Part shown: positions 7,620-32,000 of the stretch, piece after piece
Numbering within the stretch: position 1 is the stretch's first letter
Layout of the letters: every line of letters begins with the position of its first letter
Source: Halogeometricum borinquense DSM 11551
GTDB lineage: Archaea > Halobacteriota > Halobacteria > Halobacteriales > Haloferacaceae
Assembly: GCF_000172995.2 (NCBI RefSeq)
Contig: NC_014729.1
Location: forward strand, 1,620,001 to 1,652,000
DNA: 32,000 bases
Reading direction: 5' to 3'
The notes under the pieces: generated by a model
What the model was told of the DNA's origin: nothing
Database searches by the model: none
The model's input: only the letters and a program-made list of their open reading frames with translations
Position numbers and translations under genes: made by a program

Positions 7620-10600
7620 CTATACTGCGGGTTTCGCCGCGAACGCCGACTCGGGGACGACGATAGATGATGACGTCGTGCTATCGGTCGAATCCGAGGA
7701 GTCAGACGAATCCGACGAACTGGACGAATCAGTTGATTCCGACGAATCCGACGACCCCGACGAGTCAGACGAATCCGAGGAGTCCGACGACTGACCCGTG
7801 GTCAGTTCGAGTTTCTGCGCCGTCCGCTGCAGTTCGACGGAGATGTCGCCGGCCTTGTCACCGTTGACCTGTCCCTCCGAGACGGAGAGGTTCGACTGGT
7901 AGCCAACGATGTAGCCGCTTTCGTTGAGACTTGCACCGGACGAGATGGTGTACGGGCCAGTCGCGCGGACGCTGACGTTCGTGTAGCCGTTGTCCGGGCC
8001 GTACTCGCTGTAGCCCGTCGTCGAGTACGGGAGCGTCATCGTGAACTCGCCGTCCTCGTTCGTTTGGGCCTGTTGTGTGTACTCGAATGTGCTGTTCTCG
8101 GTCGGAATCTCCATCTCGACGCTCGCGGTGACAGTGCTGTTCGCGGGCGCACCGCTACCTTGCACCGTCGCACCGGGGACGCGCTCGAAGCTCTTGACCC
8201 ACGCGGCACTGCTTCTCGGGAGCATTGCCTGCGGTCTGACCTGCGCGGCACGCGCGTCACCGTAGACGAGTTGCAGGTAGTCGTTCGACGAGGTGGCGCT
8301 GGAGTTGCTCACCTTCACGAGACGGTAGTGTTCGAGTGCTGGCACGCGCTCCTCGGGGAACGTACCGATGCCACCGATCTGCGAGGTTCCGTCTTCCTCG
8401 ACGAACTCCTTGGCCGCGCTCATGTTCCCATCGAAACTCCGGACGAGCGTCGCGTTACCGGCCGGATTACCGGCGACGCTTACGGGACCCTGCGACGTCT
8501 GTACGGTTCGCGGTTCCCAGTCTACGACGATGGCCGACGGGTCCTTCGCACTACCGTGGTAGTAGTACAGGCGCGTCATCATGCTGTCGTAGAACCGCTG
8601 GTCGCGGACGAGGAAGTTCCCAGTGGGTCTCCCATCGTTCAAGCGGTAAACGCGCTGTTCGTAGAATTCTGCGGACGAGAAGTTATCTTCGGCGTCGTAG
8701 AACACCGATGGAGCGCTGAACTTCGACCCGGGCGTGGCCATCTTCCAATCGACCATCACGTACCGGGTGTTGTTTCCTTCGGTGCTCTGGGAGGCGATAA
8801 CGTCCTGTGCTTGCGTCTCGTTCGGCGCGAGCAGGAAGTTCGCCGAGTCAGTTGCACCTTCCTGGAACGGGTTAGCGTTCGGGATTCGCTCACCTTGGAC
8901 GGTGATCCAGTGACCGTAGTCCCACCACGAGAGGATCCCGTAGGATCCGTCCGCGTACTGGAAGTCGTCGGTCTTCTCGTACGATCCGTAATACGCCATC
9001 TCGTTGTTCGCACCGCCGAACGTGCCTTCTTTCGGCGTGTTCTCTTTGGTCCACTCGAACGAGGATTCCCATTTGAGAACCTCACTCGGACTGTGCCCCT
9101 GGCTCGTCTCCCACGCCGTGTTCGACTTGTCGAGCGCCGCCGTTTCCGTGTTCCGGACGTTGAGCGGAACGAGGAGAACGGGTGCTGCGATGAGAAGAAC
9201 GACCATGGCGATCGAGACGACCTGATACAGTTCGAGATCCGTCACGGTCGACATCGTGGCGCGAACGTCGAGGAATGAGAGTACCTCGCTGAGGAGGTAC
9301 GCGTTCACGACGACGACGATGACGGCAAGATAGTAGTGGAAGCGAAGTTGGGTGAACGCCGCGGAGGTCATGAAGACCGCCCAGACGATGACGAACAGGT
9401 GTTCGGGGTCCTGCTTTGCGAGTAGCGCAGCACCGACGATAATGGCGCTCACCAGTGCGAGGCCGACAAGTTGACCGCTGATTCCGAGGAGGCTACCGAT
9501 GCCATTCGGGAAGGCGGGGACGAGGAAGATGAGTCCAATAATCGCCAGACCGCCGAAGACGTAGCCGTAGTCGCGGGTGTTGCCTCGCTGAACGAGCGGC
9601 TTTGCGAGCATCCACGTCGCACCCGCAATTCCAGTGAACAGCGTGAAACCGTAGTCGGCGACGATACGGTTCACTGGTGTCAGCTGAAGTCGGCTGAGAG
9701 TGTCGGGAGAGAGGTACGGTTGTGCCTCACCGATAGTCCGGGTCGTTGCACCGGCGCTGAACCCGAGGATGCGAAGGAAGTTGTTCGACAAGAGTCGCCA
9801 CATCCCGGGAAGTACGAAGTAGACGATCCCGAGTGAAATAAGAACGATCCCAAAGACGGCTGCGGGGTAGAAACTCGGACTCACGTCGCGGGATTCGAAC
9901 TGTCGAGCAAACCATGCGAGGAAGACAGCGCCACCAGCGACGATGAGTGCAAGAAGCGGCTGTACCAGTGAGAAACTGGTCGCAGAGAATCCGAACTCCT
10001 CGATTTGAATAACCATCAGCACGGCGGTGACACCCATGGAGACGGCGGCGACGAACGCCGTCGGCTCCGGGCTCTTCCCGTTCGCAACGTCGCTCGCCAT
10101 CTTCACGAGGACGAACGCCCCGAGGACGCCGACGATGAGAACACCCGGCGGCCACACCCACATATAGAGGGCCGTGGCAACGCCTGCGATGACTGCCCAC
10201 TTGGTCGACGACCGAATGGCGTCGAAGTCGCGCTCTGCGACGATTTCCCAGATGGGCATCTCTTTCTCGGCGACCGCGAACGCGATCAGTAATGCGGCGA
10301 CGGATATGGCTTGGAAGAACGGCTCGACACCGTTGTGGTCGGAGACGCCAACGAGGGTCCGCTGGAGGAACAGACCCGGCATGAGTCCGAGAAGAATCGC
10401 CGCAAAGACGCCCGGACCACGACCGGCGAGTCGTTTACCGATTATGTAGGCCGGAATCGCTGTCAGCGCGCCGAATACGGCGGGCGTGACCAACAGCGTC
10501 TTCGCAATGAGCTCTTGGCTTGGACTACCTAGTCCGATGACAAGAGCCGCAGTTGCGACGATTTGGTCGTAGAGCGTCCCGAACTGCCCGACGCTCGTTC

Positions 10601-10865
10601 CGTAGGGGAAATGCGTCCACGGGTCGAATGGTATCGTGGAGGGCCAATGCCTGACGGTGTAACTCACCTCGCGGAGATGATACCACGCGTCATTTCCGTC
10701 AAAGAACACTTCTCCGTTTCTGATAAACTTGCTATACGACTGGAGTCGGATGGTCAACATAAGGACCATCACCACGAGTAAGGCGGGGATGTGGTACCAG
10801 TCTTCGAAGCGCTCGAGGACCGAAGTCGTCTCGTGGTCCTCGCGACGCTCGTTGTCTACGCTCAT
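7620..10865 (-). CDS. aglB: Archaeal oligosaccharyltransferase AglB (STT3 family)
   Basis: 1081 aa with about 13 N-terminal transmembrane helices. The first-loop motif is FFDGNDAWYHLR, the EL5 TIxE motif is TRTIGEAQP, and the WWDYGHW motif sits at aa 647-653 (nt 8913-8927 encode WWDYG). A large C-terminal soluble domain carries many N-x-S/T sequons. The C-terminus ends in a Ser/Asp-rich tract. Confidence 0.95.
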   Translation of the reverse strand: MSVDNERREDHETTSVLERFEDWYHIPALLVVMVLMLTIRLQSYSKFIRNGEVFFDGNDAWYHLREVSYTVRHWPSTIPFDPWTHFPYGTSVGQFGTLYDQIVATAALVIGLGSPSQELIAKTLLVTPAVFGALTAIPAYIIGKRLAGRGPGVFAAILLGLMPGLFLQRTLVGVSDHNGVEPFFQAISVAALLIAFAVAEKEMPIWEIVAERDFDAIRSSTKWAVIAGVATALYMWVWPPGVLIVGVLGAFVLVKMASDVANGKSPEPTAFVAAVSMGVTAVLMVIQIEEFGFSATSFSLVQPLLALIVAGGAVFLAWFARQFESRDVSPSFYPAAVFGIVLISLGIVYFVLPGMWRLLSNNFLRILGFSAGATTRTIGEAQPYLSPDTLSRLQLTPVNRIVADYGFTLFTGIAGATWMLAKPLVQRGNTRDYGYVFGGLAIIGLIFLVPAFPNGIGSLLGISGQLVGLALVSAIIVGAALLAKQDPEHLFVIVWAVFMTSAAFTQLRFHYYLAVIVVVVNAYLLSEVLSFLDVRATMSTVTDLELYQVVSIAMVVLLIAAPVLLVPLNVRNTETAALDKSNTAWETSQGHSPSEVLKWESSFEWTKENTPKEGTFGGANNEMAYYGSYEKTDDFQYADGSYGILSWWDYGHWITVQGERIPNANPFQEGATDSANFLLAPNETQAQDVIASQSTEGNNTRYVMVDWKMATPGSKFSAPSVFYDAEDNFSSAEFYEQRVYRLNDGRPTGNFLVRDQRFYDSMMTRLYYYHGSAKDPSAIVVDWEPRTVQTSQGPVSVAGNPAGNATLVRSFDGNMSAAKEFVEEDGTSQIGGIGTFPEERVPALEHYRLVKVSNSSATSSNDYLQLVYGDARAAQVRPQAMLPRSSAAWVKSFERVPGATVQGSGAPANSTVTASVEMEIPTENSTFEYTQQAQTNEDGEFTMTLPYSTTGYSEYGPDNGYTNVSVRATGPYTISSGASLNESGYIVGYQSNLSVSEGQVNGDKAGDISVELQRTAQKLELTTGQSSDSSDSSDSSGSSDSSESTDSSSSSDSSDSSDSTDSTTSSSIVVPESAFAAKPAV

Positions 10866-12047: not shown

Positions 12048-12053
12048 TGGCTC

Positions 12054-17201: not shown

Positions 17202-17918
17202 ATGTACCAAGGGAATCGGGTGATGGTCGGGATGCCCGCTTACAATGAGGCGGAGAATATTGCGACCGCAGTGGAGAATTTCTTGGCCCAAAATACGGTT
17301 GACGAAGTCGTCGTCGTTGACAATAACTCATCCGATAACACCGCAGAACTTGCTGAAGAGGCTGGCGCGACCGTCGTATCTGAGACGAGACAGGGGTACG
17401 GATACGCCTGTCAGCGCGCCTTCCAAGAGATGTACGAACACGACTCAGATCTCCTCGTCCTCGTCGAACCCGACGGGACGTTCGTCGCGGACGATATCGA
17501 GAAGTTGCTTTCCTACTCGTCTGACTTCGATTTCGTAGTCGGTACGCGCACATCTCCACAGCTCATCTGGGAGGGTGCAAACATGGACCCGTTCCTCCGG
17601 TGGGGAAACTGGTTCGTGGGAAAACTTGTCGAAGTACTGCATAACACGTCGAATCTGACTGACGTAGGATGTACGTTCCGCCTCATCAAAGCTGACGCAT
17701 ACGAGGATATTCGTCACCGATTCCGTATCGGTGGATCGCACTTCTCACCCCACATGCTCATTGAGGCGGCCCGTGAGGACATCTCGATGATAGAGATCCC
17801 GGTCAACTATCGCTCGCGGAAGGGGACCTCGAAGATTACGGGTGAACGCTGGCCGGCGTTCAAACTCGGCCTTGTGATGATCTGGCTCGTCGTCTCTGAG
17901 TGGTACAGCGACAACTGA
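17202..17918 (+). CDS. GT2 family glycosyltransferase (short, DPM1/dolichyl-phosphate-hexose synthase-like)
   Basis: The motifs are GMPAYNEAENI, VVVDNNSSDNT and LVEPDGTF, with a C-terminal amphipathic/hydrophobic tail (FKLGLVMIWLVV). I prefer the ATG at 17202 because a TATA-like GGATAATCTTAAG lies about 30 nt upstream. The track start at 17121 adds an Arg-rich non-coding-like extension. Confidence 0.75.
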   Translation: MYQGNRVMVGMPAYNEAENIATAVENFLAQNTVDEVVVVDNNSSDNTAELAEEAGATVVSETRQGYGYACQRAFQEMYEHDSDLLVLVEPDGTFVADDIEKLLSYSSDFDFVVGTRTSPQLIWEGANMDPFLRWGNWFVGKLVEVLHNTSNLTDVGCTFRLIKADAYEDIRHRFRIGGSHFSPHMLIEAAREDISMIEIPVNYRSRKGTSKITGERWPAFKLGLVMIWLVVSEWYSDN

Positions 17919-18030
17919 CGGGACAGATCATGCAATTTTCCTCTGATATGAGAAACATCCCACCTATGCCCGTCATTCGGGACTGTGTCGTGTTCCGTCT
18001 TCGACCGCTCTGCCGAGTCTCTGTCCGCCC

Positions 18031-19800
18031 ATGAGTCTCACACCGGACGGCCTTAGGTCGAGAGTCGCTTGGATTCCAGTCGGTATCACTGCTGTCGTTG
18101 CTGCCGTGTTAGCCATCCCGGCGCTGACCGACTCGTTCGCCGGTGATGAGATGGTGTTTGTCGGAGCGATGCGAGCGGCGGCCGAGACGGGACGACCGCT
18201 ATTTTACAAGAGTGTCCAGTTTGGTCAACAGTGGGGAATGTGGCATCCGCCGACGTACGTTTACTCCGTTGCGGCGGCTATCGTGGCTTTTGGAACCAAT
18301 ACGATAGTCATCCGCGGCGCGACGTTCGTTGCGACGTTGCTGACGCTTCCGCTACTCGTCGCTCTCGTCAACACACTCGTTGACCGTGACGCTGTCTCGG
18401 TTCGCAAGTCGTGGCGGTCGCCCTCATGGCAACTCGCTGCACTGGTCCTTGCTCTCTACGTGCTCTCGCCGTTGACGATTCAGAACGGCACGCTCGTAGA
18501 CATCGACGGCAGTCTCTTGCCTATTGGCGTTACGGCGTTTATCCTGTACGCAATTCGGACATTCGAACGGGACGGTCCGATCCCGAAATCTCGGTATATT
18601 GGGCTCGCGATATTGTTTGCGGGCGTTTCGTGGATAAAATTTGGTCCGCTTCCTGTCCTCGTCGCATCGTTTGTCGGCTACCTCGTCCTCCGCGGCCAGT
18701 ATCGGCGACTGCTACCGGCTGTCGCCGCCTTGGTGGTCGGGTTCGGATTGTTCTCTGTGACGTGGTGGGGCGTCTCGTCAGCTCTCGACTTACCGTTTTG
18801 GCGACCGTACGAACACAACTTCGGGATGCTTCTGTCTGGGGGTGACGGCCGTGAAATCGCCCTTCAGACGCGACTGATGCTCAGCGGGTGGGCCGGCTAT
18901 GCCTCACTGCTGTGGCTTTCACCGTTTCTTGTCCTGTTGGCAGTTGGCTCGCTCGTCTCGAACCAGGAGACTGCCCGCCCGACGCTTGAGTGGCTACAAA
19001 ATCGTGCACCGGTCCTCTTCGTCGGCGCTGTTGCTGTTCTCACTTACGTCCAGTACACTGTTCTTGCGAAGCTTCCCTACGGATTCCCGAAGTACATGGG
19101 CATATCGACGCCTTTGTTTGCGGTTCTTGCTGCGGTGTGTGTCGCTCACTTCCTCGATGCACCGCTCGAAACCCGTCGTCTCTGGCGTTTCGGTGCAGTT
19201 CTCGCGGGAGTCGTCGCCGCAGTCACGTTCCTCGCACCTGACCCATTTTACGTCTCGTTTAACAAGGGAACGATGGCCGTCCTACTCCGTGCTGGTGGGA
19301 CAGTTCTTGCCTACTCTGTTGGATTCGCGTCGGTATACGCCCTCTTCGATCACGTTGAAACAGGTGTAGAACTGAATCGGTCGTCGATTGCTGCTGTGGC
19401 ACTCGTCGTCTTGCTTGTCGGGACTAACGGCGGATTGATTCTCACGCAGGCGACAGCGGGGTACAGCACACACTACGACTACGGCCAGAAGGGGAATGAT
19501 GAGGTACTCTCGTACGTCAAAGAGACGTATGCTGACCTCCCAGCTGACGAGCAGTCTGAGGTCGTTGTCCCATTCGATATCGGACTCAAACTCCGTGAAC
19601 CGTACCACGACACCGAACTCTACTCCGTCTCGGATCTCGAGGATAGTCAACCACCGCTAGTCATCGTCAAACACCGAAAGTACTACGCCGTCAATTCGGC
19701 GCTGTTGGATCGACTGAACGACCATTCCGACTACTCGAAGCGGACTGTCGGATCGTTCTCTATATTCATCCGAGAAGACGTTTCGACAGAACAGAACTGA
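18031..19800 (+). CDS. GT-C fold membrane glycosyltransferase (PMT_2/ArnT-like, polyprenyl-phosphate-sugar dependent)
   Basis: 589 aa with about 12 hydrophobic helices. A DE motif (FAGDEMVFVG) follows directly after the first helix, as in the PMT and ArnT families. The C-terminal ~110 aa are soluble and acidic. Confidence 0.55.
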   Translation: MSLTPDGLRSRVAWIPVGITAVVAAVLAIPALTDSFAGDEMVFVGAMRAAAETGRPLFYKSVQFGQQWGMWHPPTYVYSVAAAIVAFGTNTIVIRGATFVATLLTLPLLVALVNTLVDRDAVSVRKSWRSPSWQLAALVLALYVLSPLTIQNGTLVDIDGSLLPIGVTAFILYAIRTFERDGPIPKSRYIGLAILFAGVSWIKFGPLPVLVASFVGYLVLRGQYRRLLPAVAALVVGFGLFSVTWWGVSSALDLPFWRPYEHNFGMLLSGGDGREIALQTRLMLSGWAGYASLLWLSPFLVLLAVGSLVSNQETARPTLEWLQNRAPVLFVGAVAVLTYVQYTVLAKLPYGFPKYMGISTPLFAVLAAVCVAHFLDAPLETRRLWRFGAVLAGVVAAVTFLAPDPFYVSFNKGTMAVLLRAGGTVLAYSVGFASVYALFDHVETGVELNRSSIAAVALVVLLVGTNGGLILTQATAGYSTHYDYGQKGNDEVLSYVKETYADLPADEQSEVVVPFDIGLKLREPYHDTELYSVSDLEDSQPPLVIVKHRKYYAVNSALLDRLNDHSDYSKRTVGSFSIFIREDVSTEQN

Positions 19801-19852
19801 CAACCGGTTTGCCGTCAAAGGGTTTGTATTCCGGGCTGGCTACCGTTCGTCG

Positions 19853-21220
19853 TTACCGATTGAATTGTATCGGGTTCCGGAACTGAATTTCGACACTACG
19901 CCATCGAATCTCTAAGATACCCCACGTGAACAGACTTCCAACGCACAGCATCGCGCCAAGCAGTTCGTACACGCCGACCCAACCAGGTAGCAAGAACATC
20001 ACGCCGTGGACTAGTTTGTTCGGGAAGAGCGACGTGATCATTCCAGGAATGCGCGACACCAAACTTGGCTTGGCTTGCTCTGTATCGACTACGTCGCCGG
20101 GTTCTCTCGACGGTAGTCCAAGCGCTGCGGCACTTTCTCCCCCGGCACTTTCGTCTCCAGTCCCGAGCCGTTCGGCTTCGTACGCCATCTGAATCTCGTA
20201 CGACCAGACAATTTCGCCATCGGTGTTGAGATCGATGACCCGACCGGCGGCAGTATCGGTCACGAGGGTATTCCCGTTCGGGAGTCTGTCAGCGTCTCGT
20301 GGCCACGACATCGTCCTGTCTTGCCACGTCCACGACTCGACCCATTCACCCTCCGACCGCTGGAACTCAACGATCCGGTTGTTCTCCGAGTCAGCGACGA
20401 TGACAGCGGGTCCACCCATCTTCGTGGGAATGTAGTCGGGGTTGTGCTGTTCGTATATCGTCTCGAACTCGTCTTCGCCTCCGAGGGTCCACGACTCCTC
20501 AAGACCCGACCGGTTCAAGAACACCACTTGGTCTTGGTTACGGAGGCTGGCCATGATGCGGCCGTCGTCAAGCAGTTCGACGTCGTTGATATGCGTCCAA
20601 TCATACGGGTACGCACCGCCGCCGTTACGGGGGAACGACTGTTCGGCGCGCCATTTCCACACAATCGTGCCCGTCTCAATGTTTAGGAGATGGACGTTAT
20701 CTCGGGCTATGTCTGCAACGAGGTAGTGTGTCTCATTCACACGGTCTACATCGTGCCACTGGACGGTTTCCGTACGACCGATACGTCGCGGCGGCCGCCA
20801 CGGATACGTCCGACTGTACAGCGTCTTCACTTCGCCGGTCGTCAAGTTTACTGTCCGGATGAGGTTCTTCCGACAACTGGTTACGCTCTTGCACTCTGAC
20901 GGAGAGAGCGTTTCACTGGCACCAAACAGGAGTGTCGACTTCTTATCCGATACTGGATCAACGTCCCAGTACGAATCGTGCTCTGTGTGTTTGTAGTACT
21001 CTGTGTTGTCCGCTCCGACGACCACAAACTTTGCAGTCGCGTGCGGACTATCAGCGACTGTTATCGCTGTTAATTCCTGCGAAACGTTTGGTGAGTACGT
21101 CGCAGTCTTCGATTCTTCTCCACTAACCGATTCATAACTGACATAACCCGATGCGACAGTACTGCTTCCGAGAAGCAGCACTATAAGTAGCGCAAATCGG
21201 GCTTTGGTCCGTCCCCCCAT
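19853..21220 (-). CDS. Membrane-tethered extracytoplasmic arylsulfotransferase (ASST)-like beta-propeller protein
   Basis: An N-terminal signal/anchor (KARFALLIVLLLGSSTVASG) and C-terminal hydrophobic segment(s) (VMFLLPGWVGVYELLGAMLCVGSLFTWGIL) bracket the soluble part. The central region has ASST-like blocks as I recall them: WTHINDVELLDDGRIMASLRNQDQVVFLN, YEQHNPDY, ADSENNRIVEF and LPNGNTLVTD. The assignment comes from motif memory only. Confidence 0.5.
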   Translation of the reverse strand: MGGRTKARFALLIVLLLGSSTVASGYVSYESVSGEESKTATYSPNVSQELTAITVADSPHATAKFVVVGADNTEYYKHTEHDSYWDVDPVSDKKSTLLFGASETLSPSECKSVTSCRKNLIRTVNLTTGEVKTLYSRTYPWRPPRRIGRTETVQWHDVDRVNETHYLVADIARDNVHLLNIETGTIVWKWRAEQSFPRNGGGAYPYDWTHINDVELLDDGRIMASLRNQDQVVFLNRSGLEESWTLGGEDEFETIYEQHNPDYIPTKMGGPAVIVADSENNRIVEFQRSEGEWVESWTWQDRTMSWPRDADRLPNGNTLVTDTAAGRVIDLNTDGEIVWSYEIQMAYEAERLGTGDESAGGESAAALGLPSREPGDVVDTEQAKPSLVSRIPGMITSLFPNKLVHGVMFLLPGWVGVYELLGAMLCVGSLFTWGILEIRWRSVEIQFRNPIQFNR

Positions 21221-21404
21221 CGTTCTGTGACCGTCTGTGGAGAGACATAGTACAAGAAGTTACTGTATAGTACTGCATCATTTTAGAATGATTGTCACTT
21301 CTATCCAATTTCCCCACAAACTACTCAATGATTTGCCACACTAGTTATCAAATTCTGTATTTGGTGGCGAAGATACTTGTACGGTACCGATTCAGATCAC
21401 TGGT
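21221..21404. promoter_or_regulatory. AT-rich divergent promoter region between the ASST-like gene and the FkbM operon
   Basis: This is the most AT-rich spacer in the island. It has a hairpin/palindrome ATCATT-TTAG-AATGAT (21277-21292) and the direct repeat ATAGTAC at 21247-21253 and 21267-21273. Confidence 0.45.
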
Positions 21405-22238
21405 ATGCAGTCTCTGGTACGGAGCGCGAGGGAGGTGTACCGTCATGACGGTCCTCTCTCGGTTTTCAAGTGGGGTTTGAAATGGGGGGCATGGCGAATT
21501 GGCTTAAATAACGTGTATCAACAGTTCGTTTCCGACCATCTCGTCCTTCCGTTGGACGATCTCAGTGTGTCGTTTGCCTCGTCCGGTGCGAGTGTCTTCT
21601 ACGACTTCACCGACGATTTCGAGAGCGAGAAGGACATCGTCTCGGAAGTTCTCGATGCTGTCGAGGGCGGCGACGTGTTCTATGATATTGGGGCGAATAT
21701 CGGCCTGTACGCGTGTTTCGTCGGAACCGCGTCTGACGACATCGACGTCGTCGCGTTCGAGCCGAGTCACAGAGCTAGTAGCGAGCTACGTAAAAACATT
21801 GAACTCAACCGTCTCGACGTGCAGATCCGTTCCGAAGCGCTCTCCGATGAGTGCGGTACGGCCTCGTTCGTGGATGAGGGATTGACGCAGAATCACCTCC
21901 AGTCTCGCGCCGAGACAGGGACAGCCGACGCTACCGAAGTGCCGATAGTGACTGGTGATTCGCTCGTAGACGACGGCGAAACGCCCCACCCGACAGTAGC
22001 GAAAATCGACGTCGAAGGCGCGGAGATGCAGGTCCTCCAGGGGCTCGACGCGGAACTCAGCCGTCCGGAGTTCAGAACCGTGTTTTGCGAGGTTCATCCC
22101 CGAAAGCTCCCCGAATACGATAGTTCGCCCGAGGAAGTCGAACAGTTCCTCCGAGAACGGGGGTTCTCGCTGGAAACTCTCTACGAGCGCCGTTCGCAGT
22201 ATTATCTCAAGGCTGTGAAGGACGACCACGAGGAGTAG
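21405..22238 (+). CDS. FkbM-family SAM-dependent methyltransferase
   Basis: The motifs are VFYDIGANIGLYA, VVAFEPSHRASSELRKNIELNRL and KIDVEGAEMQVLQGL. The stop lies 3 nt before the next ATG. Confidence 0.8.
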   Translation: MQSLVRSAREVYRHDGPLSVFKWGLKWGAWRIGLNNVYQQFVSDHLVLPLDDLSVSFASSGASVFYDFTDDFESEKDIVSEVLDAVEGGDVFYDIGANIGLYACFVGTASDDIDVVAFEPSHRASSELRKNIELNRLDVQIRSEALSDECGTASFVDEGLTQNHLQSRAETGTADATEVPIVTGDSLVDDGETPHPTVAKIDVEGAEMQVLQGLDAELSRPEFRTVFCEVHPRKLPEYDSSPEEVEQFLRERGFSLETLYERRSQYYLKAVKDDHEE

Positions 22239-22241
22239 CTG

Positions 22242-23498
22242 ATGTTCGACACCGGTCACCTCCGAAGGCGGTGTGAGGCGGTGAATACGGCGCTACGCAA
22301 CTCGATTGGAGTCGGCGTCCCGGTCCTGATCGTCGCACTTTCACTCTTCGTTGTGCCGTTTGTCGATCTCTCGCTGGTGGTCGCCGATATCATCGAGTTC
22401 GATCCAGTGTACGACTTCGTCACGTCGTACTACGGTGCGGCGAGGGGATACCTTGCGGGCGAAGCCGTCTACGCCAACCCTGACCACCCGTACATCTACC
22501 CGCCGCTGACGCTGCTTCTGTGGCTCCCGTTCGTCGTCTTTGATCCCTTGCTGGCAGGCGTTGTCTGGGATATTGTCGTCCTCGGGGTGCTGTACGCGAG
22601 CGTGCTGTTCCTGCTGTCGTCTCGGAATGTCTCACTAAACGCACGGTGGCGCTTTGGACTCCTCGCGGCGCTGGTCGGATTCTACCCGACGATCTTGTGG
22701 CTCAAAGCGGGACAGGTATCCGGACTGCTAGCTGCGCTCCTGTGCGTCGCTGCTGGTTTATCCGGTGGGGACGAGGGCCCTCGACACGGCATTTTGACTG
22801 GAGCCATCCTCGCGGTCGTCTCGTTGTTCAAGCCGTTCTATGCGGTCGCGGCAACGCCGGTTCCGCGGAAGAACGCGAGACTGGTTGGTGGGTTTCTCGG
22901 CGTCGCTGTCGTCATCCTTGCCGGTCTCATTATCTTTGGCATCGACATGCAACTCGCTCAATTTGACTACCTCCTCACCGGTCTCGGCTGGGGTGAGACG
23001 GCAGAGGCCGGTGGTGGGGGTTCGTCGCCGACGAACTGGGGACCCTATTACTTCCGGCCGTTCATCGTATTCGGAGGATTCGCACTGTACGTAAAGTTCG
23101 CGTTCGTCGCCCTCCTCGCGGTCGTCTCAATCGCTAGTCGGTGGATGGACTCTACGGAACTTGATGAGCGACTGTTCGTTCTCGGATTTACTGCGGTGCC
23201 ACTTCTCAGTCCCATCTCGGACCTGTTCGCGGTCAACGCCCTGATTCCGGCTCTCGTTCTCACCTCAGTCGCGGAACTGCGGCGGGAGGAGTCACTCATT
23301 CAGGTTCCGCTGTTCACTGTCCTCATGATTCAAATACACCCGTACCTGTTCGGCTTCCTCGCCAGTTTCGGTCCGCGGTACGTCCCGGAACTTCGCGTCT
23401 TGGAACCGGTACTTCCACTGCTTCAACCTGCTCTCTGGGGTATCTTCGCGCTTGTCGGACTCCAATTGTACCGTATCTCGAAGGAAGTGGACTTCTGA
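22242..23498 (+). CDS. GT87/DUF2029-like GT-C membrane glycosyltransferase, paralog 1
   Basis: 418 aa and polytopic. The first-loop region is DFVTSYYGAARGYLAGEAVYANPDHPYIYPPLTLLLWLPF, an Asp plus YxYPP pattern as in PimE-type enzymes. It shares GFYPTILWLKAGQVSGLL with the next gene. Confidence 0.5.
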   Translation: MFDTGHLRRRCEAVNTALRNSIGVGVPVLIVALSLFVVPFVDLSLVVADIIEFDPVYDFVTSYYGAARGYLAGEAVYANPDHPYIYPPLTLLLWLPFVVFDPLLAGVVWDIVVLGVLYASVLFLLSSRNVSLNARWRFGLLAALVGFYPTILWLKAGQVSGLLAALLCVAAGLSGGDEGPRHGILTGAILAVVSLFKPFYAVAATPVPRKNARLVGGFLGVAVVILAGLIIFGIDMQLAQFDYLLTGLGWGETAEAGGGGSSPTNWGPYYFRPFIVFGGFALYVKFAFVALLAVVSIASRWMDSTELDERLFVLGFTAVPLLSPISDLFAVNALIPALVLTSVAELRREESLIQVPLFTVLMIQIHPYLFGFLASFGPRYVPELRVLEPVLPLLQPALWGIFALVGLQLYRISKEVDF

Positions 23499-23619
23499 AC
23501 TGATTCTCGCGCCTCACTCTTTCCGACTCGGGCTTGCCCGTTCTTTCGGCTACTGTCGCCGAAATCAACAACGACGGTAGATAGTGAGATATTAATGAGT
23601 CGTCGCAGAATTCCGCGGC

Positions 23620-24928: not shown

Positions 24929-25657
24929 ATGGTTTCTGGCGACATTGCCGACGCCGACGGCCCGATGGACGCAGTTCCGGGCCCCGGACGCGACGCGTGT
25001 GACGCTCATGCGGCACTCGACGTAGAAGCCGTACTCTCGGACACTTCGGTTGTGATCCCGAGCCGGGACGAGCAGAACTACACGAGCAAGAGCGTCCCCG
25101 ACTGGCTTGAGGTCGTCGTCCGGACAGACGACGGGCGAAGCGTCGCCCGCAACCGCGGCGTTGAAGAGGCAACGGGTGAGTGGATTGTTCTCGCCGACGA
25201 TGACATTACGTTCCCGACCACGCTGACAGCTATGCTCGTTGACTCTATGCATACGTGCCATCTCGCTGGTCTGGAGGATTTCTGGCCGATGGACACGCTA
25301 CTGACTCGGTACATGGTCTTTCACCGGTCGCTGTGGGACGCCGTTGGCGGTTTTGATGAGAGTCGAGAACACGGTGAAGACTCCGACTTTGTCTACCGAT
25401 GCGCGGACGCAGGGGCAAAGATACGTCCGCTTCCTCGTAACATCGTTCCACACCACGACGCCGATACCGAGTTCTCCGCGCTTGAACACGTCGAATGGCT
25501 CTGGTATCTCCTGCGGCGACATCCGGTTCGCATGGCTCCGAAAGCGGCGCTGTTGGGTCTCCAGAAGCTTGGACTGGTCGAACCTCCCGTGACAGACTAC
25601 CCGGATGGGTGGTCTAGCCAACTCATTCAGCCTTCCGGAGAGGGAGACGAGAGATGA
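24929..25657 (+). CDS. Small GT-A/GT2-like glycosyltransferase
   Basis: The motifs are SVVIPSRDE, ARNRGVEEATGEWIVLADDDITF (the DxD region) and FHRSLWDAVGGFDE. The stop overlaps the next start (ATGA at 25654-25657). The true start could be an internal Met. Confidence 0.55.
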   Translation: MVSGDIADADGPMDAVPGPGRDACDAHAALDVEAVLSDTSVVIPSRDEQNYTSKSVPDWLEVVVRTDDGRSVARNRGVEEATGEWIVLADDDITFPTTLTAMLVDSMHTCHLAGLEDFWPMDTLLTRYMVFHRSLWDAVGGFDESREHGEDSDFVYRCADAGAKIRPLPRNIVPHHDADTEFSALEHVEWLWYLLRRHPVRMAPKAALLGLQKLGLVEPPVTDYPDGWSSQLIQPSGEGDER

Positions 25658-26844
25658 ATATCGTTCACATCACGGCGGGTCTCGTTCCAATCCACGGTGA
25701 GTTCGGCGGCGGCGTCGAGCGCCATATCCGAGCAGTCACGACGGGTCTTGCTGCCCGGGACCACAATGTGACAGTCGTGGACCGCCGCCACGATGTTGAT
25801 GACCCACTCAGCATTGACGGGGTTGATGTACTCCGACTCGCGGCCCCACGGGTCCAGACAGGTCTACTTGACGGGTGGTTGGACCACGTGCTGAACGAGT
25901 GTTTGTACTCGGCCGGTCTTCGCCGTGCCCAAGAGCGAATTGCCGAGGCCGATGTGGTCCACGCGCATAACATGTACGCGGGCCTTGCCGCGCGGCGCCT
26001 CGCCCGGAAAGCACGAGTTCCATTCGTCTATACCTGCCACAACGGAATGTGGTGTACTGACGACGTGAACACCTACGAACAACAAGTCGTCCGCCGCTTT
26101 GAGGGGAGTTTGATGCGAGATGCCGATGCGTCAATCGCTGTGAGCGAAGCCGTCGCTGACGGGGCACGTACGTACGGCGACGCCGACCCGACGGTGATTC
26201 CGAATGGTGTTGACACCGAGATCTACGGCCCCGATGCGGACACCCGTTCAGTCGAAGACACCTACGAGCTCGACGGCCGAAAGACCGTCCTCTTCGTTGG
26301 TCGTCTCGCCCGAGCAAAAGGGGTTGATGTCCTCGTCAAGGCCGCTCGTGACGTACTCGACAGCAGCAACGACCCGGTCCGGTTTGTCCTCGTCGGTCCT
26401 GACAAACACATGTTCGGCGGATCTGCCGCAGAGTCGTATCCTACGGAGATACGGCGTTTGCTTGATGAATTGGGCGTCCGAGACGACTTCGTATTCGCCG
26501 GACAGGTATCTGATGAGGAACTTGTCTCCCTCTACACGGCCGCCGATGCGTTCGTCCTTCCGTCACGGTACGAGGCGCAGGGGATGGTCCTCTTGGAGGC
26601 ACTCGCCAGCGGAACGCCTGTTGTCGGAACAGATGTCGGTGGCATCTCCGAAGTCGTTACCAGCGATGTCGGCCGTGTTGTCCCACCTGAGGCCCCGGTG
26701 CAGTTAGCAGAGGCACTCCTCGCTGTCCTCGATGCTGACCGAAACGGCGCGATGTCAGTCACCGCCCGTGACTACGCCGAACGGACCTATGCATGGCCAC
26801 GTATCGTCTCCCGAATCGAATCCGTGTACGAGGGGGTCAGATAG
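25654..26844 (+). CDS. GT4 family (GT-B) glycosyltransferase
   Basis: The C-terminal Glycos_transf_1 signature is LFVGRLARAKGVD...VLPSRYEAQGMVLLEALASGTPVVGTDVGGISEVV. Confidence 0.85.
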   Translation: MNIVHITAGLVPIHGEFGGGVERHIRAVTTGLAARDHNVTVVDRRHDVDDPLSIDGVDVLRLAAPRVQTGLLDGWLDHVLNECLYSAGLRRAQERIAEADVVHAHNMYAGLAARRLARKARVPFVYTCHNGMWCTDDVNTYEQQVVRRFEGSLMRDADASIAVSEAVADGARTYGDADPTVIPNGVDTEIYGPDADTRSVEDTYELDGRKTVLFVGRLARAKGVDVLVKAARDVLDSSNDPVRFVLVGPDKHMFGGSAAESYPTEIRRLLDELGVRDDFVFAGQVSDEELVSLYTAADAFVLPSRYEAQGMVLLEALASGTPVVGTDVGGISEVVTSDVGRVVPPEAPVQLAEALLAVLDADRNGAMSVTARDYAERTYAWPRIVSRIESVYEGVR

Positions 26845-28077
26845 ATGCACGTCCTGTTCGTCGGCACGCGCGCGCCACTGACGCCGGAGCGTCGCGGCGC
26901 TATCGAGAAACTCACCTTCGACCTCGCTTCGACGTTGGCGTCTGAGGGGCACGACGCAACGGTTCTCACTGTCGGTGAATCCGGCCGCCGATACACCGCC
27001 GAGGGCGTTCAACTAGTAGAAATAACCGAACCGATAACGCGCCCTCCCTCGCATGTCACGCCCGTCGTGGAGTTCGGTCGCAAAGCACGCCGAGTCGCCG
27101 ACAGAATCCACCGTGAGAATCCGGTGGATGTGGTTCATGCTGTCTACTACCCGAACCTTCTCGGCTTCCGACCTCCCGGCGATGCTCCGCTCGTCGTCGC
27201 CGAGCACAACGCCCACCCGTGGCGGAAGGAGCATCGTTTTATTGAGGAATTGACTATTACACACCGACTCCGCTGGGAGGCTGACACCTACATCAGACTC
27301 GCGGAGGCCCACGCTGCCTTCTTCGGCGCCGAGAGAGTTCTTAGCGTCAGCGACGCCCACGGCGAGTGGATCGACCGAGCGATTCCAGAAGCGCGGTCGA
27401 AGCGCGAGACGATGTACAACTTCGTCGATACAGACGTTTATCGCCCCGATACCGCATCAGAACGCGATATCGACTTCCCCGATGGGAAAACAGTCCTGTA
27501 CGCGGGTCGAAAAGTCCCTCACAAGGGCCTTCACAGGGCAGTCAGTGCGATATCCAAGATGGAGACCGACGCAACACTCGTCGTTCTCGGCCCACTCGGA
27601 AGTGGATTCAGCGATGTGGATTCTCTTGATGGTGTAAATCCCGATGATCTCGAGCCATATCTCGGGAGTGTTATCGAGGATGCACAAAATTCCGGAGTGA
27701 CCGATCAAATCTCGTTCCCTGGCTATGTCGCTGACGCCGACCTTCCGGCCTACTACGCCGCAGCGGATGTCACCACGTTCCCGAGTGTCCTCGAATCGTT
27801 TGGTATGGTCCCGGTGGAATCGATGGCGTGCGGAACACCAGTCGTCGCCCACGACGTGCCGCCGATAGATGAGACGGTTCTTGATGGTGAGACTGGGTTC
27901 CTGACAAACGAGGTGTCGGCGTCGGCACTCGCAGCAGCCCTGGATCGACTTCTCACCGACGATTCTCTTCGAAGCCAGTTCGCTGAACGGGGACGGAATC
28001 GAGCGGTCGAGCGATTCGACATCGAAACCGCCGTACAGGAACATATCCGCTTGTACGAGCGCGTTCACAGCGAGTAA
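26845..28077 (+). CDS. GT4 family (GT-B) glycosyltransferase
   Basis: The signature is YAGRKVPHKGL...TFPSVLESFGMVPVESMACGTPVVAHDVPPIDETV. The ATG directly abuts the previous stop. Confidence 0.85.
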   Translation: MHVLFVGTRAPLTPERRGAIEKLTFDLASTLASEGHDATVLTVGESGRRYTAEGVQLVEITEPITRPPSHVTPVVEFGRKARRVADRIHRENPVDVVHAVYYPNLLGFRPPGDAPLVVAEHNAHPWRKEHRFIEELTITHRLRWEADTYIRLAEAHAAFFGAERVLSVSDAHGEWIDRAIPEARSKRETMYNFVDTDVYRPDTASERDIDFPDGKTVLYAGRKVPHKGLHRAVSAISKMETDATLVVLGPLGSGFSDVDSLDGVNPDDLEPYLGSVIEDAQNSGVTDQISFPGYVADADLPAYYAAADVTTFPSVLESFGMVPVESMACGTPVVAHDVPPIDETVLDGETGFLTNEVSASALAAALDRLLTDDSLRSQFAERGRNRAVERFDIETAVQEHIRLYERVHSE

Positions 28078-28116: not shown

Positions 28117-29514
28117 ATGCCAGACCCCGCCGACCGACCGCACGTCGTCTTCTTGACGGTCGATTCGCTCCGGCGTGATGATGTCGGTTGTTATGGACAA
28201 CTCGACATTGAGTACGATCTCACCCCGCAAATCGACACGCTCGCAGACGAGGGGGCACGGTTTGATGCTGCCATCAGCAACGGACCGAGTACGCTCTACT
28301 CGTTCCTGGCGAGTCAGACTTCAACGTATCCGCTCGAAGACGAAGAACATACGCGAAACCGACCGTTCCTTGCCGAGGAACTCTCCAAGGGTGGATACGA
28401 GACGGCGGCGTTCGTCACGAACCCCTTCCTGACGACACACTACGGCTTTGACCGTGGGTTCGATCACTTCCGAGATTTCACGGGATCTGAGGCCGATGAC
28501 GAGGGGACGGCAGGTCTCAAGCGGGATTTCATGGATAAACTCAACCGGGCGCTCCGTCGTTCACCGTTCCTATACGAGATTGCAAAAGGGGTTAAGAACT
28601 TCAGTTCGGCTCCGTTCCCCAGAGCGGGGCAAGTCAACGACGAAGTTGTTACGTATCTCGAATCGACCGACGGTGATGACCCGCTGTTCTTGTGGGCACA
28701 CTATATGGATCCGCATCATCCGTATCTGCCCGAACCAGAATACCGTGATCTCCCATTCGTTCCTTCGCTGAGTAAGTGGGAGATCATCCGTTTGTCGGCG
28801 AAGATTGACCTCATCAAGCGCGACGATTACGACCGGACGAACATCACCGACGAAACGCTGTCGAACCTTCGTGCTCTCTATCGCGCACAAATAAAACGTA
28901 CCGACGACGCTATCAAGCGAGTCGTTCGTTCGCTCAAAGAGAATGGTCTGTACGATGATACCCTGCTCATCATTGCCTCAGACCACGGCGACGAGTTCTT
29001 CGAGCACGGGTCGCTCGGACATTCTCCCCAGTTGTACGACGAGCTCATCCACGTCCCGTTCGTCGTCAAGACTCCCGCGGACCATGAGACAATCGAATCG
29101 GTGGAAGGCTTGATGGCTTACCTGGACATCCCACCGACAGTACTTGATTTTGCAGGGATAACACCGCCGTCTTCGATGCGTGGTGAGAGCGTTCGTGAGT
29201 CATTCGAGACGGGAGCAACGGATCGAGAACACGTCATCAGCGAATACACTTACTGGGACGACCGAATCACCTCGCTCCGAACGCCCGAGTGGAAGTACAT
29301 CGTTGATTATCTCCACGACCGAGAGGAACTGTTCGATATCAACACGGATCCGACAGAACAGACGAACGTGCTGTCCGACACTCCAGACGTAGCTGCGGAA
29401 CTCCGCGAAATCGTCCGGACGCATCTTGATGCCGAAGGGGAACACCAGAGTACGGCGTACGATGATATCGACGACGAAATGCGAGGTCAACTCGAAGACC
29501 TCGGCTATCTGTAA
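28117..29514 (+). CDS. Cytoplasmic sulfatase-like hydrolase/transferase (alkaline-phosphatase superfamily) lacking the C/S-x-P-x-R formylglycine motif
   Basis: The AP-superfamily blocks are VVFLTVDSLRRDDVGCYG, TPQIDTLADEGARFD and IIASDHGDEFFEHGSLGHS. At the position of the sulfatase CxPxR motif the sequence is NGPST (28279-28293). There is no signal peptide or transmembrane segment. Confidence 0.75.
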   Translation: MPDPADRPHVVFLTVDSLRRDDVGCYGQLDIEYDLTPQIDTLADEGARFDAAISNGPSTLYSFLASQTSTYPLEDEEHTRNRPFLAEELSKGGYETAAFVTNPFLTTHYGFDRGFDHFRDFTGSEADDEGTAGLKRDFMDKLNRALRRSPFLYEIAKGVKNFSSAPFPRAGQVNDEVVTYLESTDGDDPLFLWAHYMDPHHPYLPEPEYRDLPFVPSLSKWEIIRLSAKIDLIKRDDYDRTNITDETLSNLRALYRAQIKRTDDAIKRVVRSLKENGLYDDTLLIIASDHGDEFFEHGSLGHSPQLYDELIHVPFVVKTPADHETIESVEGLMAYLDIPPTVLDFAGITPPSSMRGESVRESFETGATDREHVISEYTYWDDRITSLRTPEWKYIVDYLHDREELFDINTDPTEQTNVLSDTPDVAAELREIVRTHLDAEGEHQSTAYDDIDDEMRGQLEDLGYL

Positions 29515-29583
29515 CCTCTCTTCACCGCGGAAGACTCTACTGAAGCGGTGGCTATTTGGCAGTGTGCCGCCGAACGCATCTCA

Positions 29584-30997
29584 ATGTCTGATGTCGCCGA
29601 GCGACCGCCGATAGTTTTTCTCACAATCGACTCGCTGCGACGCGACGAAGTTGGTTGCTACGGGGACAGAGGTGTTGATTATGACCTCACTCCCGAAATC
29701 GACTCGCTCGCAGCGGATGGCGTTCGATTCGACACCGCTATCAGCAACGCGCCGAACACGCTCTTCTCGTTCCTTGCGACGCTTACCTCCACGTACCCGT
29801 TAGCTAAGAAGGGCAACACGGCCGGGCGACCCGCAGTGGCTGAAGAACTCTCGGACGCCGGTTACCGGACGGCAGGGTTCCACTCGAATCCGTTTCTCTC
29901 CCGTCACTACGGGTTCCATCGCGGCTTTGATGTGTACCACGACTTCACCGACGGTAGTGGCGATGGCGACGATGACGGTGAATCCTCGCTGACGAACCGG
30001 TTCTTCGAGGTGCTCAATCGAACGCTTCACCGATCTCCTCTCCTGCACGAGTACGCAAAGGAGACAAAGAACTACTTCACGCCACCGTACACGCGCGCTG
30101 GTCCCATCAACGACGCTGCTACCGAGCATCTTCGAAACGTGGACTTCGATGACCCGCAATTCGTCTGGGTCCACTATATGGACGCACACCACCCCTATCT
30201 CCCGACGGGGAAGTACCGAGAACTCCCGTTCCTTCCCGATATTTCACCGGTTCGAACCGTTGACCTTGCAGCAAAGATTGACTTGGTCAAACACCCCGAG
30301 TACGACGGCGCTAGAGCGTCCGTCTCGGAACGTGATGTAGCGGATCTCCGTGCTCTCTACCGAGCACAGGTCAAACGCACCGACGACGCCGTTGGCGAAA
30401 TTGTCGCCGAGCTAAAGCGCCCAGGGAATCTATGAGGAGGCATGTATCGTCATCGCTTCGGACCACGGTGACGAATTCCTCGAACACGGGTCGCTCGGTC
30501 ATTCCCCGCAGTTGTACGACGAACTCATCCACGTCCCGTTCATTGTCAAACCGCCGGCCGAATATGATACAGTAGACGCTATCGAGGATCTGACAGCGTA
30601 TCTCGACATCGGACCGACCTTCCTCGACCTCGCGGGTACCAGCGCACCTGATGAGATGGAGGGTCAGTCGTTCCTTGACGCCCTCGAAAATGGAAAAACG
30701 GAGCGTGAGGCGGTCATCAGCGAGTACGCCAACAGCGGAAAGCGAATCACGTCCCGGCGGACACTCGAGTGGAAGTACATCCTCGACGATTACCACGACC
30801 GAGAGGAACTGTTCGATCTCACAACTGACAGTACCGAACAGACTGACTGCTCTACTGACCGACCGGAAGTACTGGAGTCGTTCCGCGATGCCGTCCGAGA
30901 ACGCATGTCTCATGAGGAGTTCGATACCGACGCATCGTTCGACGACGACGTGGACGAGGAGATGCGACAACAGTTAGAGGACCTCGGCTACCTCTGA
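29584..30997 (+). pseudogene. Tandem paralog of the sulfatase-like gene, disrupted by a 1-nt frameshift
   Basis: Track ORFs 29548-30435 and 30512-30997 are colinear with 28117-29514 (MSDVAERPPIVFLTIDSLRRDE ... DEEMRQQLEDLGYL). The frame breaks at ...AELKR|PGNL*. In the +1 frame the text continues GIYEEACIVIASDHGDEFLEHGSLGHSPQLYDELIHVPF, matching paralog 1. One extra C in the CCC run at 30420-30422 explains the shift. Confidence 0.7.
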
Positions 30998-31054: not shown

Positions 31055-32000
31055 ATGACCGAGCAAGAGGCAAGCGACATCAGCCTCGGTGGCGAGACGG
31101 TCAAAGCGGCACTGGGGAAGTTCATAATGGCCCTCATCGGCTTTGTGGGGACTATTATCTTCGCTCGGTGGCTTGGCTCCGACAGCCTCGGTGGCTACTA
31201 CCTCCTCTTGACGGCCGCAGCTCTCTCTAACCGTCCCGTTCAGGGCCTTGCCGAAGCGATACAGAAACGTGGATCGGAGTCGGGCTTCGAACTGGAGCAG
31301 ACGCTCTCTGTCGGGACACTCGTCGTCATCGGATGGACCGCTCTCGCCGCTCTCATCGCGTACGCTCTCCGCGGCTACCTCCAATCGTTTTTCGGATTTC
31401 CGGGGTCAGTTTCTGCGTTTGTCGCCCTGTTAGCTTCACTGAGCGGCTTCTTCATCCTCCAGTCGCAACTCGTTGCACTCGGACGTATCAGTCGAAATCA
31501 GTGGTTTGACACCGTCCGGTCGTACCTCACATTCCCAGCACAACTCGGATTTCTCATCCTCGGATGGGGTGCTGCTGGCGTCGCCATCGGAGAAGTCGTG
31601 GCGACGCTCCTGTTGTACGTCCCGATGTACCGGTCGTTCGGGACTGGATTTGCACGTCCCACCGTCGAGACGATGCGGTCGCTATGGGAGTACGCGAAGT
31701 ACAGCATTCCGAACGAGTACCTGACGCACACGTACAGCCAACTGGATATGCTCCTCCTTGGTTTTCTCGTCGGAAAGAGCGCGACCGGCGAGTACGGGGT
31801 CGCCCTCCGTCTTACTGTCCCCGCGGCGTTCGTTTCGATGGTCGCCACGCAGGGCTTGTTCTCGCGGGTCAGCAACCTTCGGTCGAAGGGTGAGCGTGTC
31901 GATATCGACGTACAGAACACGCTTTCATTCGCCAGTATTGTTGCTATCCCGATGCTTGTTGGAGGCGTTCTTCTCGATGAACAACTTGTCGTGACGGCGT
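31055..32000 (+). CDS. Wzx/AglR-type oligosaccharide flippase (MOP superfamily polysaccharide biosynthesis protein), N-terminal ~315 aa. The 3' end lies outside the window.
   Basis: This ORF is not in the ORF track because it has no stop in the window. My translation from the ATG at 31055 is MTEQEASDISLGGETVKAALGKFIMALIGFVGTIIFARWLGSDSLGGYYLLLTAAALSNRPVQGLAEAIQKR..., followed by repeated hydrophobic helices to the window end. A TATA-like CTATTTTGCG lies about 30 nt upstream. Confidence 0.7.
   Translation, partial: MTEQEASDISLGGETVKAALGKFIMALIGFVGTIIFARWLGSDSLGGYYLLLTAAALSNRPVQGLAEAIQKRGSESGFELEQTLSVGTLVVIGWTALAALIAYALRGYLQSFFGFPGSVSAFVALLASLSGFFILQSQLVALGRISRNQWFDTVRSYLTFPAQLGFLILGWGAAGVAIGEVVATLLLYVPMYRSFGTGFARPTVETMRSLWEYAKYSIPNEYLTHTYSQLDMLLLGFLVGKSATGEYGVALRLTVPAAFVSMVATQGLFSRVSNLRSKGERVDIDVQNTLSFASIVAIPMLVGGVLLDEQLVVTA

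Follow-up and report, generated by a model that had tools for sequence, protein, structure and literature searches.

The window analysed here, 32,000 nucleotides of the Halogeometricum borinquense DSM 11551 genome (contig NC_014729.1, positions 1,620,001 to 1,652,000), contains a glycosylation island with the oligosaccharyltransferase AglB, and within this island lies a gene for a protein resembling the bacterial arylsulfate sulfotransferases (ASSTs). The locus raises the question of whether haloarchaea sulfate glycans at the outer face of the membrane, independently of 3'-phosphoadenosine-5'-phosphosulfate (PAPS); the original prediction, made from the DNA sequence, took the ASST-like protein for a candidate for a haloarchaeal N-glycan sulfotransferase that was believed to be still missing. 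The analysis places the protein in the ASST superfamily, with its catalytic residues conserved, and leads us to suggest, tentatively, that it is a histidine-dependent sulfuryl transferase of the haloarchaeal cell surface, belonging to the AglB island as an accessory module and serving to tailor a glycoconjugate of the envelope. The gene looks like an optional tailoring gene of a large family, and not like the missing N-glycan sulfotransferase.

Catalytic residues, predicted fold and closest known enzymes

The open reading frame (ORF) of the ASST-like gene is exactly as first described (Table 1), and the three motifs from which the family had been recognised, W208-THINDV, Y256-EQHNPDY and E279-NNRIVEF, are all present in its product. 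Comparison with Pfam bore out the claim of ASST superfamily membership, as both models exceeded their curated cut-offs, PF14269 (Arylsulfotran_2) with 45.3 bits (cut-off 27, E 9.9e-12) and PF05935 (Arylsulfotrans) with 37.2 bits (cut-off 24.2, E 2.2e-9). PF00884, the sulfatase fold, gave no Pfam match to the ASST-like protein and did match two nearby genes, here termed S1 and S2. No NCBIfam model matched the ASST-like protein up to E 10, and a C-terminal sorting signal of the PGF-CTERM or archaeosortase type was rejected on this result. The protein is 100% identical to the H. borinquense DSM 11551 database sequence 'Arylsulfotransferase (ASST)' and already carries the ASST family name in public databases; an experimental characterisation of an archaeal ASST-like protein was not found in the literature searched.

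The active site of the Escherichia coli enzyme EcAST comprises His252, His356, Asn358, Arg374 and Thr501, together with His436, which is transiently sulfurylated (PMC13426309). A PDB sequence search with the haloarchaeal family profile did not reach EcAST, and the catalytic alignment required both the EcAST sequence from strain CFT073 and an EcAST-family profile. The precursor was taken from the CFT073 genome, its mature numbering being that of the precursor minus 27 (confirmed; precursor His463 is mature His436), and the haloarchaeal family profile was aligned by hhalign to EcAST alone and to a 20-sequence EcAST-family profile. The latter comparison gave a probability of 71% and an E value of 3.7e-5 over 99 columns, and the same register was obtained against EcAST alone. 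In this register H210, N212 and R227 correspond to His356, Asn358 and Arg374, and H259, the catalytic histidine on which the original idea depended, corresponds to the sulfurylated His436, while R282 and E285 align to R496 and E499 of EcAST, both invariant in the EcAST family. Residues H156, H210, N212, R227 and H259 were found to be invariant in 30/30 and 81/81 homologues, as was E285 in both sets, with R282 conserved in 77/81, although the 80 loci behind the larger set were retrieved by a QHNPD or DRLPNG pattern, which is a caveat on the invariance of the motifs. The conserved residues suggest that the ASST-like protein is catalytically competent.

An AlphaFold2 model of the ASST-like protein, built on a 30-sequence alignment, was confident (predicted local distance difference test 83.8, predicted template modelling score 0.81). 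The model predicts 24 strands in six groups of four, together with a closing strand, and helices at the N terminus (aa 2-33) and at the C terminus (aa 387-398, 401-410 and 417-440), with a poorly ordered acidic linker between the propeller and the C-terminal helices. All the top Foldseek matches in the PDB were beta-propellers, with Cpz4 (9KF4/9KF6) among them, and the best were propellers of a generic kind, lactonases and NHL domains for instance. In the model, the invariant polar residues H156, H210, H259 and R308/D309 each begin the innermost strand of successive blades, as would be expected of a central active site. The order of the blades would further suggest that the invariant H156 takes the place of His252, and the R308/D309 position that of Thr501.

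The hydrophobic segment near the N terminus reaches a Kyte-Doolittle 19-residue mean of 1.96, is preceded by the basic sequence MGGRTKAR and stays hydrophobic across the alignment of 30 homologues; it is made up of an n-region (RTKAR), a 15-residue hydrophobic core and a VAS-G sequence. The hydrophobic stretch at the C terminus covers aa 403-438, and here the model has amphipathic helices and one transmembrane helix (aa 417-440). Within this C-terminal module P412 and W414 are invariant, E437 is kept in 80/81 homologues and the helix contains an acidic residue, a strictness of conservation that hints at contact with a membrane-embedded partner or substrate. The propeller contains four N-x-S/T sequons, and alignments of homologues revealed a near-invariant C110/C116 pair. 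Taken together, the basic N terminus and basic C-terminal tail, the four sequons and the conserved cysteine pair predict a location of the propeller outside the cell, and the most economical topology would be one with the N terminus in, the propeller out and the C terminus in. The extracytoplasmic location originally proposed is thus upheld at the level of prediction. Of the 'doubly anchored' description, the two hydrophobic segments are real, but anchoring at the N terminus is uncertain because this segment could be a Sec signal peptide that is cleaved.

Cpz4, the ASST-type sulfotransferase of caprazamycin biosynthesis in a Streptomyces sp. and the closest characterised relative, was alone in giving a PDB sequence match under the default E-value cut-off of 0.001 (~1e-4 to 9e-4). 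This soluble protein belongs to the pathway of a bacterial antibiotic and naturally sulfates a sugar hydroxyl; a dedicated polyketide synthase, together with a PAPS-dependent sulfotransferase, produces its donor. The two proteins share the block P-Y-D-x-x-H-I-N...G-R-N, and the sequence block of H210, N212 and R227 also aligns to Cpz4; both are single-domain propellers of similar length that lack an N-terminal beta-sandwich, although their identity is only ~16% (Foldseek). Unlike Cpz4, the archaeal protein has an export signal and a C-terminal membrane anchor, and no donor pathway is visible nearby. EcAST (3ELQ) resembles the ASST-like protein in its six-bladed propeller, extracytoplasmic location and catalytic residues. 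It is, however, a soluble homodimer with a 598-aa precursor that acts on small phenolics, and it was not among the top 50 Foldseek matches of the ASST-like model. EcAST relatives also carry the N-terminal beta-sandwich PF17425, which is absent from the ASST-like protein, where the propeller begins at ~aa 40, and the archaeal architecture therefore resembles that of Cpz4 rather than that of EcAST.

The notion that an enzyme of this type might act on a sugar has precedents. In addition to Cpz4, the PAPS-independent enzymes DhAST of Desulfitobacterium hafniense and HefAST of Hungatella effluvii sulfate aliphatic alcohols and sugars, N-acetylglucosamine (GlcNAc) included, and ASSTs other than Cpz4 sulfate GlcNAc and glucosides (PMC13426309). 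DhAST and HefAST are bacterial proteins of the EcAST/DhAST clusters whose sulfation was seen in vitro, with no natural substrates identified, and they still depend on aryl-sulfate donors. Seen beside these enzymes, the ASST-like protein represents a known type of enzyme in a new archaeal variant that is anchored in the membrane.

Genomic context of the gene and its family

The position of the ASST-like gene inside the AglB island was confirmed, AglB being 9 kb away and glycosylation genes lying on both sides; in the Pfam/NCBIfam annotation of the window, AglB and ~15 further glycosylation genes surround it. The gene is also divergent from the FkbM/glycosyltransferase (GT) operon, as had been noticed, its start being 184 bp from FkbM, which is followed by two GT87 genes.

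One contig (L088) is near-identical to the window (96-99% identity), and a metagenomic, syntenic AglB cluster (L089) has 13 genes in common with it at 39-83% identity. The slot in L089 (4759-5442) that matches positions 19853-23498 of the window is filled by just one gene, a Methyltransf_23 gene read from the minus strand, and the one GT87 of this cluster is 42% identical to GT87a of the window compared with 50% to GT87b. As L089 is without the ASST-like gene and FkbM and has one GT87 only, the ASST-like gene, FkbM and the extra GT87 (19853-23498) can be understood as a variable tailoring module. The slot itself appears to be a hot spot for the swapping of glycan-tailoring genes.

The family to which the protein belongs is large. 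The window protein had 2994 word-index matches, and at least 568 loci were confirmed in species-representative genomes, with 2-4 paralogues per genome; an exhaustive search gave 555 clusters at 50% identity (E <= 1e-30), and 51 haloarchaeal plasmid records carry an ASST-like copy. Several very long metagenomic proteins, P0428 (2481 aa), P0442, P0458, P0466 and P0495, show similarity to the family profile in 9-12 distinct regions, which suggests tandem propeller blades or domains.

Neighbourhoods were counted in the best 80 of the at least 568 genomic loci, 10 kb on each side, and recurrent contexts were obtained from unbiased clustering of the neighbours together with Pfam and one deposited annotation. 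In the first of these contexts, present in 24 of the 80 loci (L001-L080) and, by a hidden Markov model (HMM), in L083, the genes follow one another as PAP2 phosphatase, the solute-binding protein SBP_bac_5, the ASST-like gene and a polytopic glycosyltransferase of the GT39/PMT_2-like type. The GT39/PMT_2-like gene lies directly downstream of the ASST-like gene on the same strand and is often followed by a gene for a 437-aa membrane protein; examples of this context are found at L083 10001-13060 and L090 4460-10734. SBP_bac_5 adjoins the ASST-like gene in 23/80 loci, and in L084 and L086 the gene directly downstream is an unclassified one of ~540 aa. The second context, in ~9 loci from Natrinema, Halalkalicoccus, Haloarchaeobius, Natronococcus and Halovenus, has the order ASST-like, DedA, YdjM, LPG_synthase_TM, followed by an operon of sulfatase, sulfatase-like (287 aa), GT4 and GT4. 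With its two GTs, two sulfatase-fold genes and lipid-flippase-like genes it could be a pathway for a sulfated diglycosyl-lipid. It was observed in L043, L044, L047, L052, L053, L065 and L074 (~11300-20400) and in part in L025 and L060.

In a neighbour-joining tree of the ASST-like proteins, which was made without bootstrap, the two contexts fall in separate clades, and the window protein sits in a four-member clade with L082, L087 and L085. In L082 and L087 the gene is embedded in a cluster for glycan biosynthesis that includes GT4s and Wzx flippases, L082 also having a sulfatase-fold gene, and a more sensitive seed search placed a sulfatase-fold gene within 10 kb in 12/80 loci. These contexts and clades tie the family to lipid-linked glycoconjugate chemistry at the membrane surface, and repeatedly to sulfatase-fold genes, but not to AglB as such. 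The idea that the whole ASST-like family is a glycosylation-cluster family was rejected, any GT being found in only 13/80 loci.

Proposed role and its alternatives

In the tentatively favoured reading, that of a cell-surface enzyme tailoring an envelope glycoconjugate, the six-bladed propeller would be exported by way of its N-terminal signal or anchor and held at the outer face of the membrane by the C-terminal transmembrane helix, both termini lying in the cytoplasm. If the enzyme works like EcAST, the sulfuryl group of a donor would be transferred to His259 to give a sulfo-histidine intermediate positioned by His210, Asn212 and Arg227, and would then pass from His259 to a hydroxyl of the envelope glycoconjugate in a ping-pong mechanism. 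Together with FkbM and the extra GT87, the ASST-like gene would make up a tailoring module of the AglB island that varies between strains, and, from the place of the gene in that module, the most likely acceptor would be a flipped lipid-linked glycan or a protein-bound N-glycan. Should primary sulfation take place in the cytoplasm at all, it would more probably be the work of the sulfatase-fold genes of the GT operon.

A number of observations weigh against this proposal. The syntenic cluster L089 is without the ASST-like gene. Neither aglB nor a GT87, FkbM or the 589-aa neighbour of the window gene was found within 10 kb in any of the 80 homologue loci, so that the co-occurrence with aglB expected from the original prediction fails at the family level, and a GT of any kind was found at this distance in only 13/80, even with the more sensitive seed search. 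The tree that links the protein to glycan clusters lacks bootstrap values, and the alignment to EcAST spans only ~99 columns at 71% probability, with His252 and Thr501 outside it. The established haloarchaeal N-glycan sulfotransferases differ in fold and apparently act before flipping, and no report on sulfate in H. borinquense glycans was found in the literature searched. The donor is the main weakness of the sulfuryl-transferase reading: a phenol, pyrone or polyketide synthase donor pathway was not seen in the window or in the recurrent neighbourhoods, and characterised ASSTs use aryl sulfates, alkyl and sugar sulfates not being donors (PMC13426309). The earlier description of a glycan-modifying, PAPS-independent sulfotransferase thus keeps its support from family, catalytic residues, predicted location and island, and loses it with respect to aglB linkage, the donor and any reported glycan sulfate.

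The sulfatase-fold genes provide the best of the alternatives. The premise that the haloarchaeal N-glycan sulfotransferase had not been identified is out of date, as two such enzymes of Halobacterium salinarum, VNG1056C (Agl30) and VNG1057C (Agl31), were identified in 2025 (PMC11980604). Agl30 is membrane-associated and Agl31 cytosolic, both have the alkaline-phosphatase/sulfatase fold and are encoded in the aglB cluster, each sulfated the Haloferax volcanii glycan when expressed there, and sulfation apparently takes place on the completed dolichol-phosphate-bound tetrasaccharide (PMC11980604). The two enzymes therefore perform, from an aglB-anchored cluster, the function that had been proposed for the ASST-like protein, to which their fold is unrelated; their same-fold counterparts in the window are S1 and S2 (28117-30997). 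S1 has no transmembrane segment, and the C/S-x-P-x-R formylglycine motif is absent from S1 and from the 29548-30435 part of S2, which fits a non-hydrolytic role like that reported for Agl30 and Agl31. S2 is split in the window into ORFs 29548-30435 and 30512-30997 in different frames, while the L088 copy is intact (470 aa), and S2 of H. borinquense DSM 11551 is either a pseudogene or the product of a sequencing error. Genes of the S1/S2 type are operon-coupled to GT2-GT4-GT4 in the same order in the window, in L088 and in L089, and this coupling, together with the fold shared with Agl30 and Agl31, makes S1 and S2 the more direct candidates for sulfation in the cytoplasm.

It is accordingly possible, if on the doubtful side, that the glycan of the island is sulfated in the cytoplasm by S1 and S2 and that the ASST-like protein acts on some other envelope substrate, such as a different polyprenol-linked glycoconjugate or sulfated glycolipids, and lies in the island as a result of mosaicism and not of function. 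This would agree with the AglB cluster L089 doing without the ASST-like gene, with the absence of aglB near the homologues, with the several paralogues per genome and with the fact that most paralogues lie beside GT39-like/PAP2 or DedA/LPG_synthase_TM/sulfatase/GT4 genes and are not AglB-linked. Set against it are the nearest relatives, L082 and L087, which sit in Wzx-containing glycan clusters, and the divergent promoter region that the ASST-like gene shares with the FkbM-GT87 operon inside the island; moreover, S1 is at most a putative orthologue of Agl31, no Halobacterium protein being present among the 120 best matches of S1.

It is improbable that the protein is instead a surface aryl-sulfate sulfotransferase or sulfatase working on exogenous phenolic sulfates, in scavenging or detoxification like the periplasmic enterobacterial enzymes, with no biosynthetic role. 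Such a function would remove the difficulty over the donor, as aryl sulfates from the environment would then serve as substrates, and it is consistent with the catalytic residues common to EcAST, with an extracytoplasmic location as in bacterial ASSTs, with the size of the family and its many paralogues per genome, and with the frequent adjacency of SBP_bac_5. The GT39-like operon partner and the PAP2, DedA and flippase-like neighbours, however, point to lipid-linked envelope chemistry and not to nutrient uptake, the subclade of the window protein is embedded in glycan clusters, and the strict conservation of the C-terminal membrane module speaks for an enzyme acting at the surface of the membrane.

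We give similarly little credence to the idea that the propeller was recruited for non-sulfuryl chemistry (phosphoryl or other ester transfer, hydrolysis or a lyase reaction) or that it assists GT-C glycosyltransferases as a subunit, either accessory or carbohydrate-binding. The similarity to characterised ASSTs is indeed remote (16% to Cpz4; the hhalign result quoted above), Foldseek gave generic propellers as its best matches, GT39-like genes are closely coupled to the family, and the position of Thr501 may be occupied by the invariant D309, which would be unusual beside a sulfuryl group. Yet the H-x-N...R and Q-H motifs of the sulfuryl site are invariant and ASST-specific, which would be unexpected in a non-catalytic protein. 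In its strict form, with the ASST-like protein as the missing and sole N-glycan sulfotransferase of the pathway, the original prediction can draw on the AglB-island location and on an ASST family with intact catalytic residues, but it is very improbable in view of the identification of Agl30 and Agl31, the sulfatase-fold candidates in the same island, the lack of aglB linkage in 80 other loci and a syntenic cluster without the gene, and the claim to the missing enzyme is weakened.

A wider scheme can be drawn up around the tentatively favoured role, although we consider it unlikely in this general form. In such a scheme haloarchaea would have an outer-face, PAPS-independent (trans-)sulfation step in envelope glycoconjugate biosynthesis, in which membrane-tethered ASST-like propellers take sulfate from an exported membrane-associated donor, perhaps made by the co-occurring sulfatase-fold enzymes, and pass it to flipped lipid-linked glycans, N-glycans or glycolipids, with the paralogue subfamilies (glycan-cluster, GT39-partnered and sulfatase/GT4-partnered) specialised by acceptor. 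If demonstrated in Archaea, sulfation at the outer face without PAPS would be noteworthy. It would add a modification step after flipping to archaeal glycoconjugate assembly and would lead one to ask what activated sulfate donor is available outside the cell, and it bears on the observation that basal N-glycan sulfation remains in Hbt. salinarum without Agl30 and Agl31. Were the protein active, this would be, judged by the literature searched, the first functional assignment of an ASST-type enzyme in Archaea, and the ASST family, for most members of which the natural substrate is unknown according to reviews, would gain a biosynthetic role; salt-adapted, PAPS-independent sulfotransferases that accept sugars would also be of interest for biocatalysis. 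Should the protein be unrelated to the N-glycan, what is left would be a gene of a large family, annotated before, in a glycosylation island of mosaic composition.

Other features of the island

The features of the window are collected in Table 1.

Table 1. Coordinates of the ASST-like gene, its parts and the surrounding features in the 32,000-nucleotide window
Feature	Position	Strand	Basis or remark
ASST-like gene, 455 aa, ATG start	19853..21220	-	ORF list and Pfam
Hydrophobic segment near the N terminus (aa 9-27), either a signal peptide or a signal anchor	21140..21196	-	Hydrophobicity, homologues, model
Six-bladed beta-propeller (predicted), aa ~40-351	20168..21103	-	AlphaFold2 prediction; Foldseek
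H210-x-N212 ... R227 motif	20540..20593	-	hhalign to EcAST His356, Asn358, Arg374
Q258-H259-N-P-D motif, H259 = sulfurylated His436	20435..20449	-	hhalign
C-terminal membrane module, aa 403-440, then basic tail	19901..20014	-	Hydrophobicity, model, conservation
Divergent intergenic region, ASST-like/FkbM, 184 bp, 40% GC	21221..21404		
Polyprenyl-phosphate transporter-like (VCA0040-like) gene	4964-6076	-	NCBIfam 185 bits, below equivalog cut-off
UDP-glucose dehydrogenase	between the 4964-6076 gene and AglB		Pfam/NCBIfam
AglB oligosaccharyltransferase	7620..10865	-	Pfam STT3, AglB_core-like, AglB_L1
Three epimerase/dehydratases, nucleotidyltransferase, GT2-LPG_synthase_TM fusion, then GT2	after AglB		Pfam/NCBIfam
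589-aa polytopic membrane protein, convergent neighbour	18031..19800	+	Homologue at same position in L089
FkbM methyltransferase	21405-22238	+	Pfam
Extra GT87 glycosyltransferase (GT87a)	22242-23498	+	Pfam
Second GT87 (GT87b)	after GT87a		Pfam
GT2-GT4-GT4 genes, operon runs on into sulfatase-fold genes	24929..28077	+	Pfam
S1, sulfatase-fold, 465 aa, soluble, candidate Agl31-type	28117..29514	+	Pfam Sulfatase, SGSH_C
S2, second sulfatase-fold gene, frameshift near 30430	29548..30997	+	Pfam; ORFs compared
Wzx-type (Polysacc_synt) flippase, runs off window	31055..32000	+	tblastn 99% identity to L088 flippase

The 589-aa neighbour gave no Pfam or NCBIfam match, and its homologue in L089, 39% identical, stands likewise beside GT2. 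It has a C-terminal soluble domain and may be an unrecognised outer-face glycosyltransferase or polymerase. Its identification as a GT39/PMT_2-like partner was rejected, the family HMM and BLASTP having found no relation, and no pair of ASST and GT-C can therefore be claimed at this position. At the other side of AglB, the VCA0040-like gene adjoins UDP-glucose dehydrogenase and AglB and is a candidate dolichol-phosphate recycling transporter.

The guanine-plus-cytosine (GC) content of the divergent intergenic region is 40%, against 55-60% in the flanking genes, and across the central island (12000-25000) values of 51-59% were obtained in 1-kb windows, the left flank being higher (~62%). The window contains no tRNA genes by which the island borders might be recognised. 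Close to its left edge is an Orc1/Cdc6-type gene (1401-2582, plus strand), and about five other loci likewise have Cdc6-type genes no more than 10 kb from an ASST-like homologue, for example at L018 8301-9578 and L084 4145-5344.

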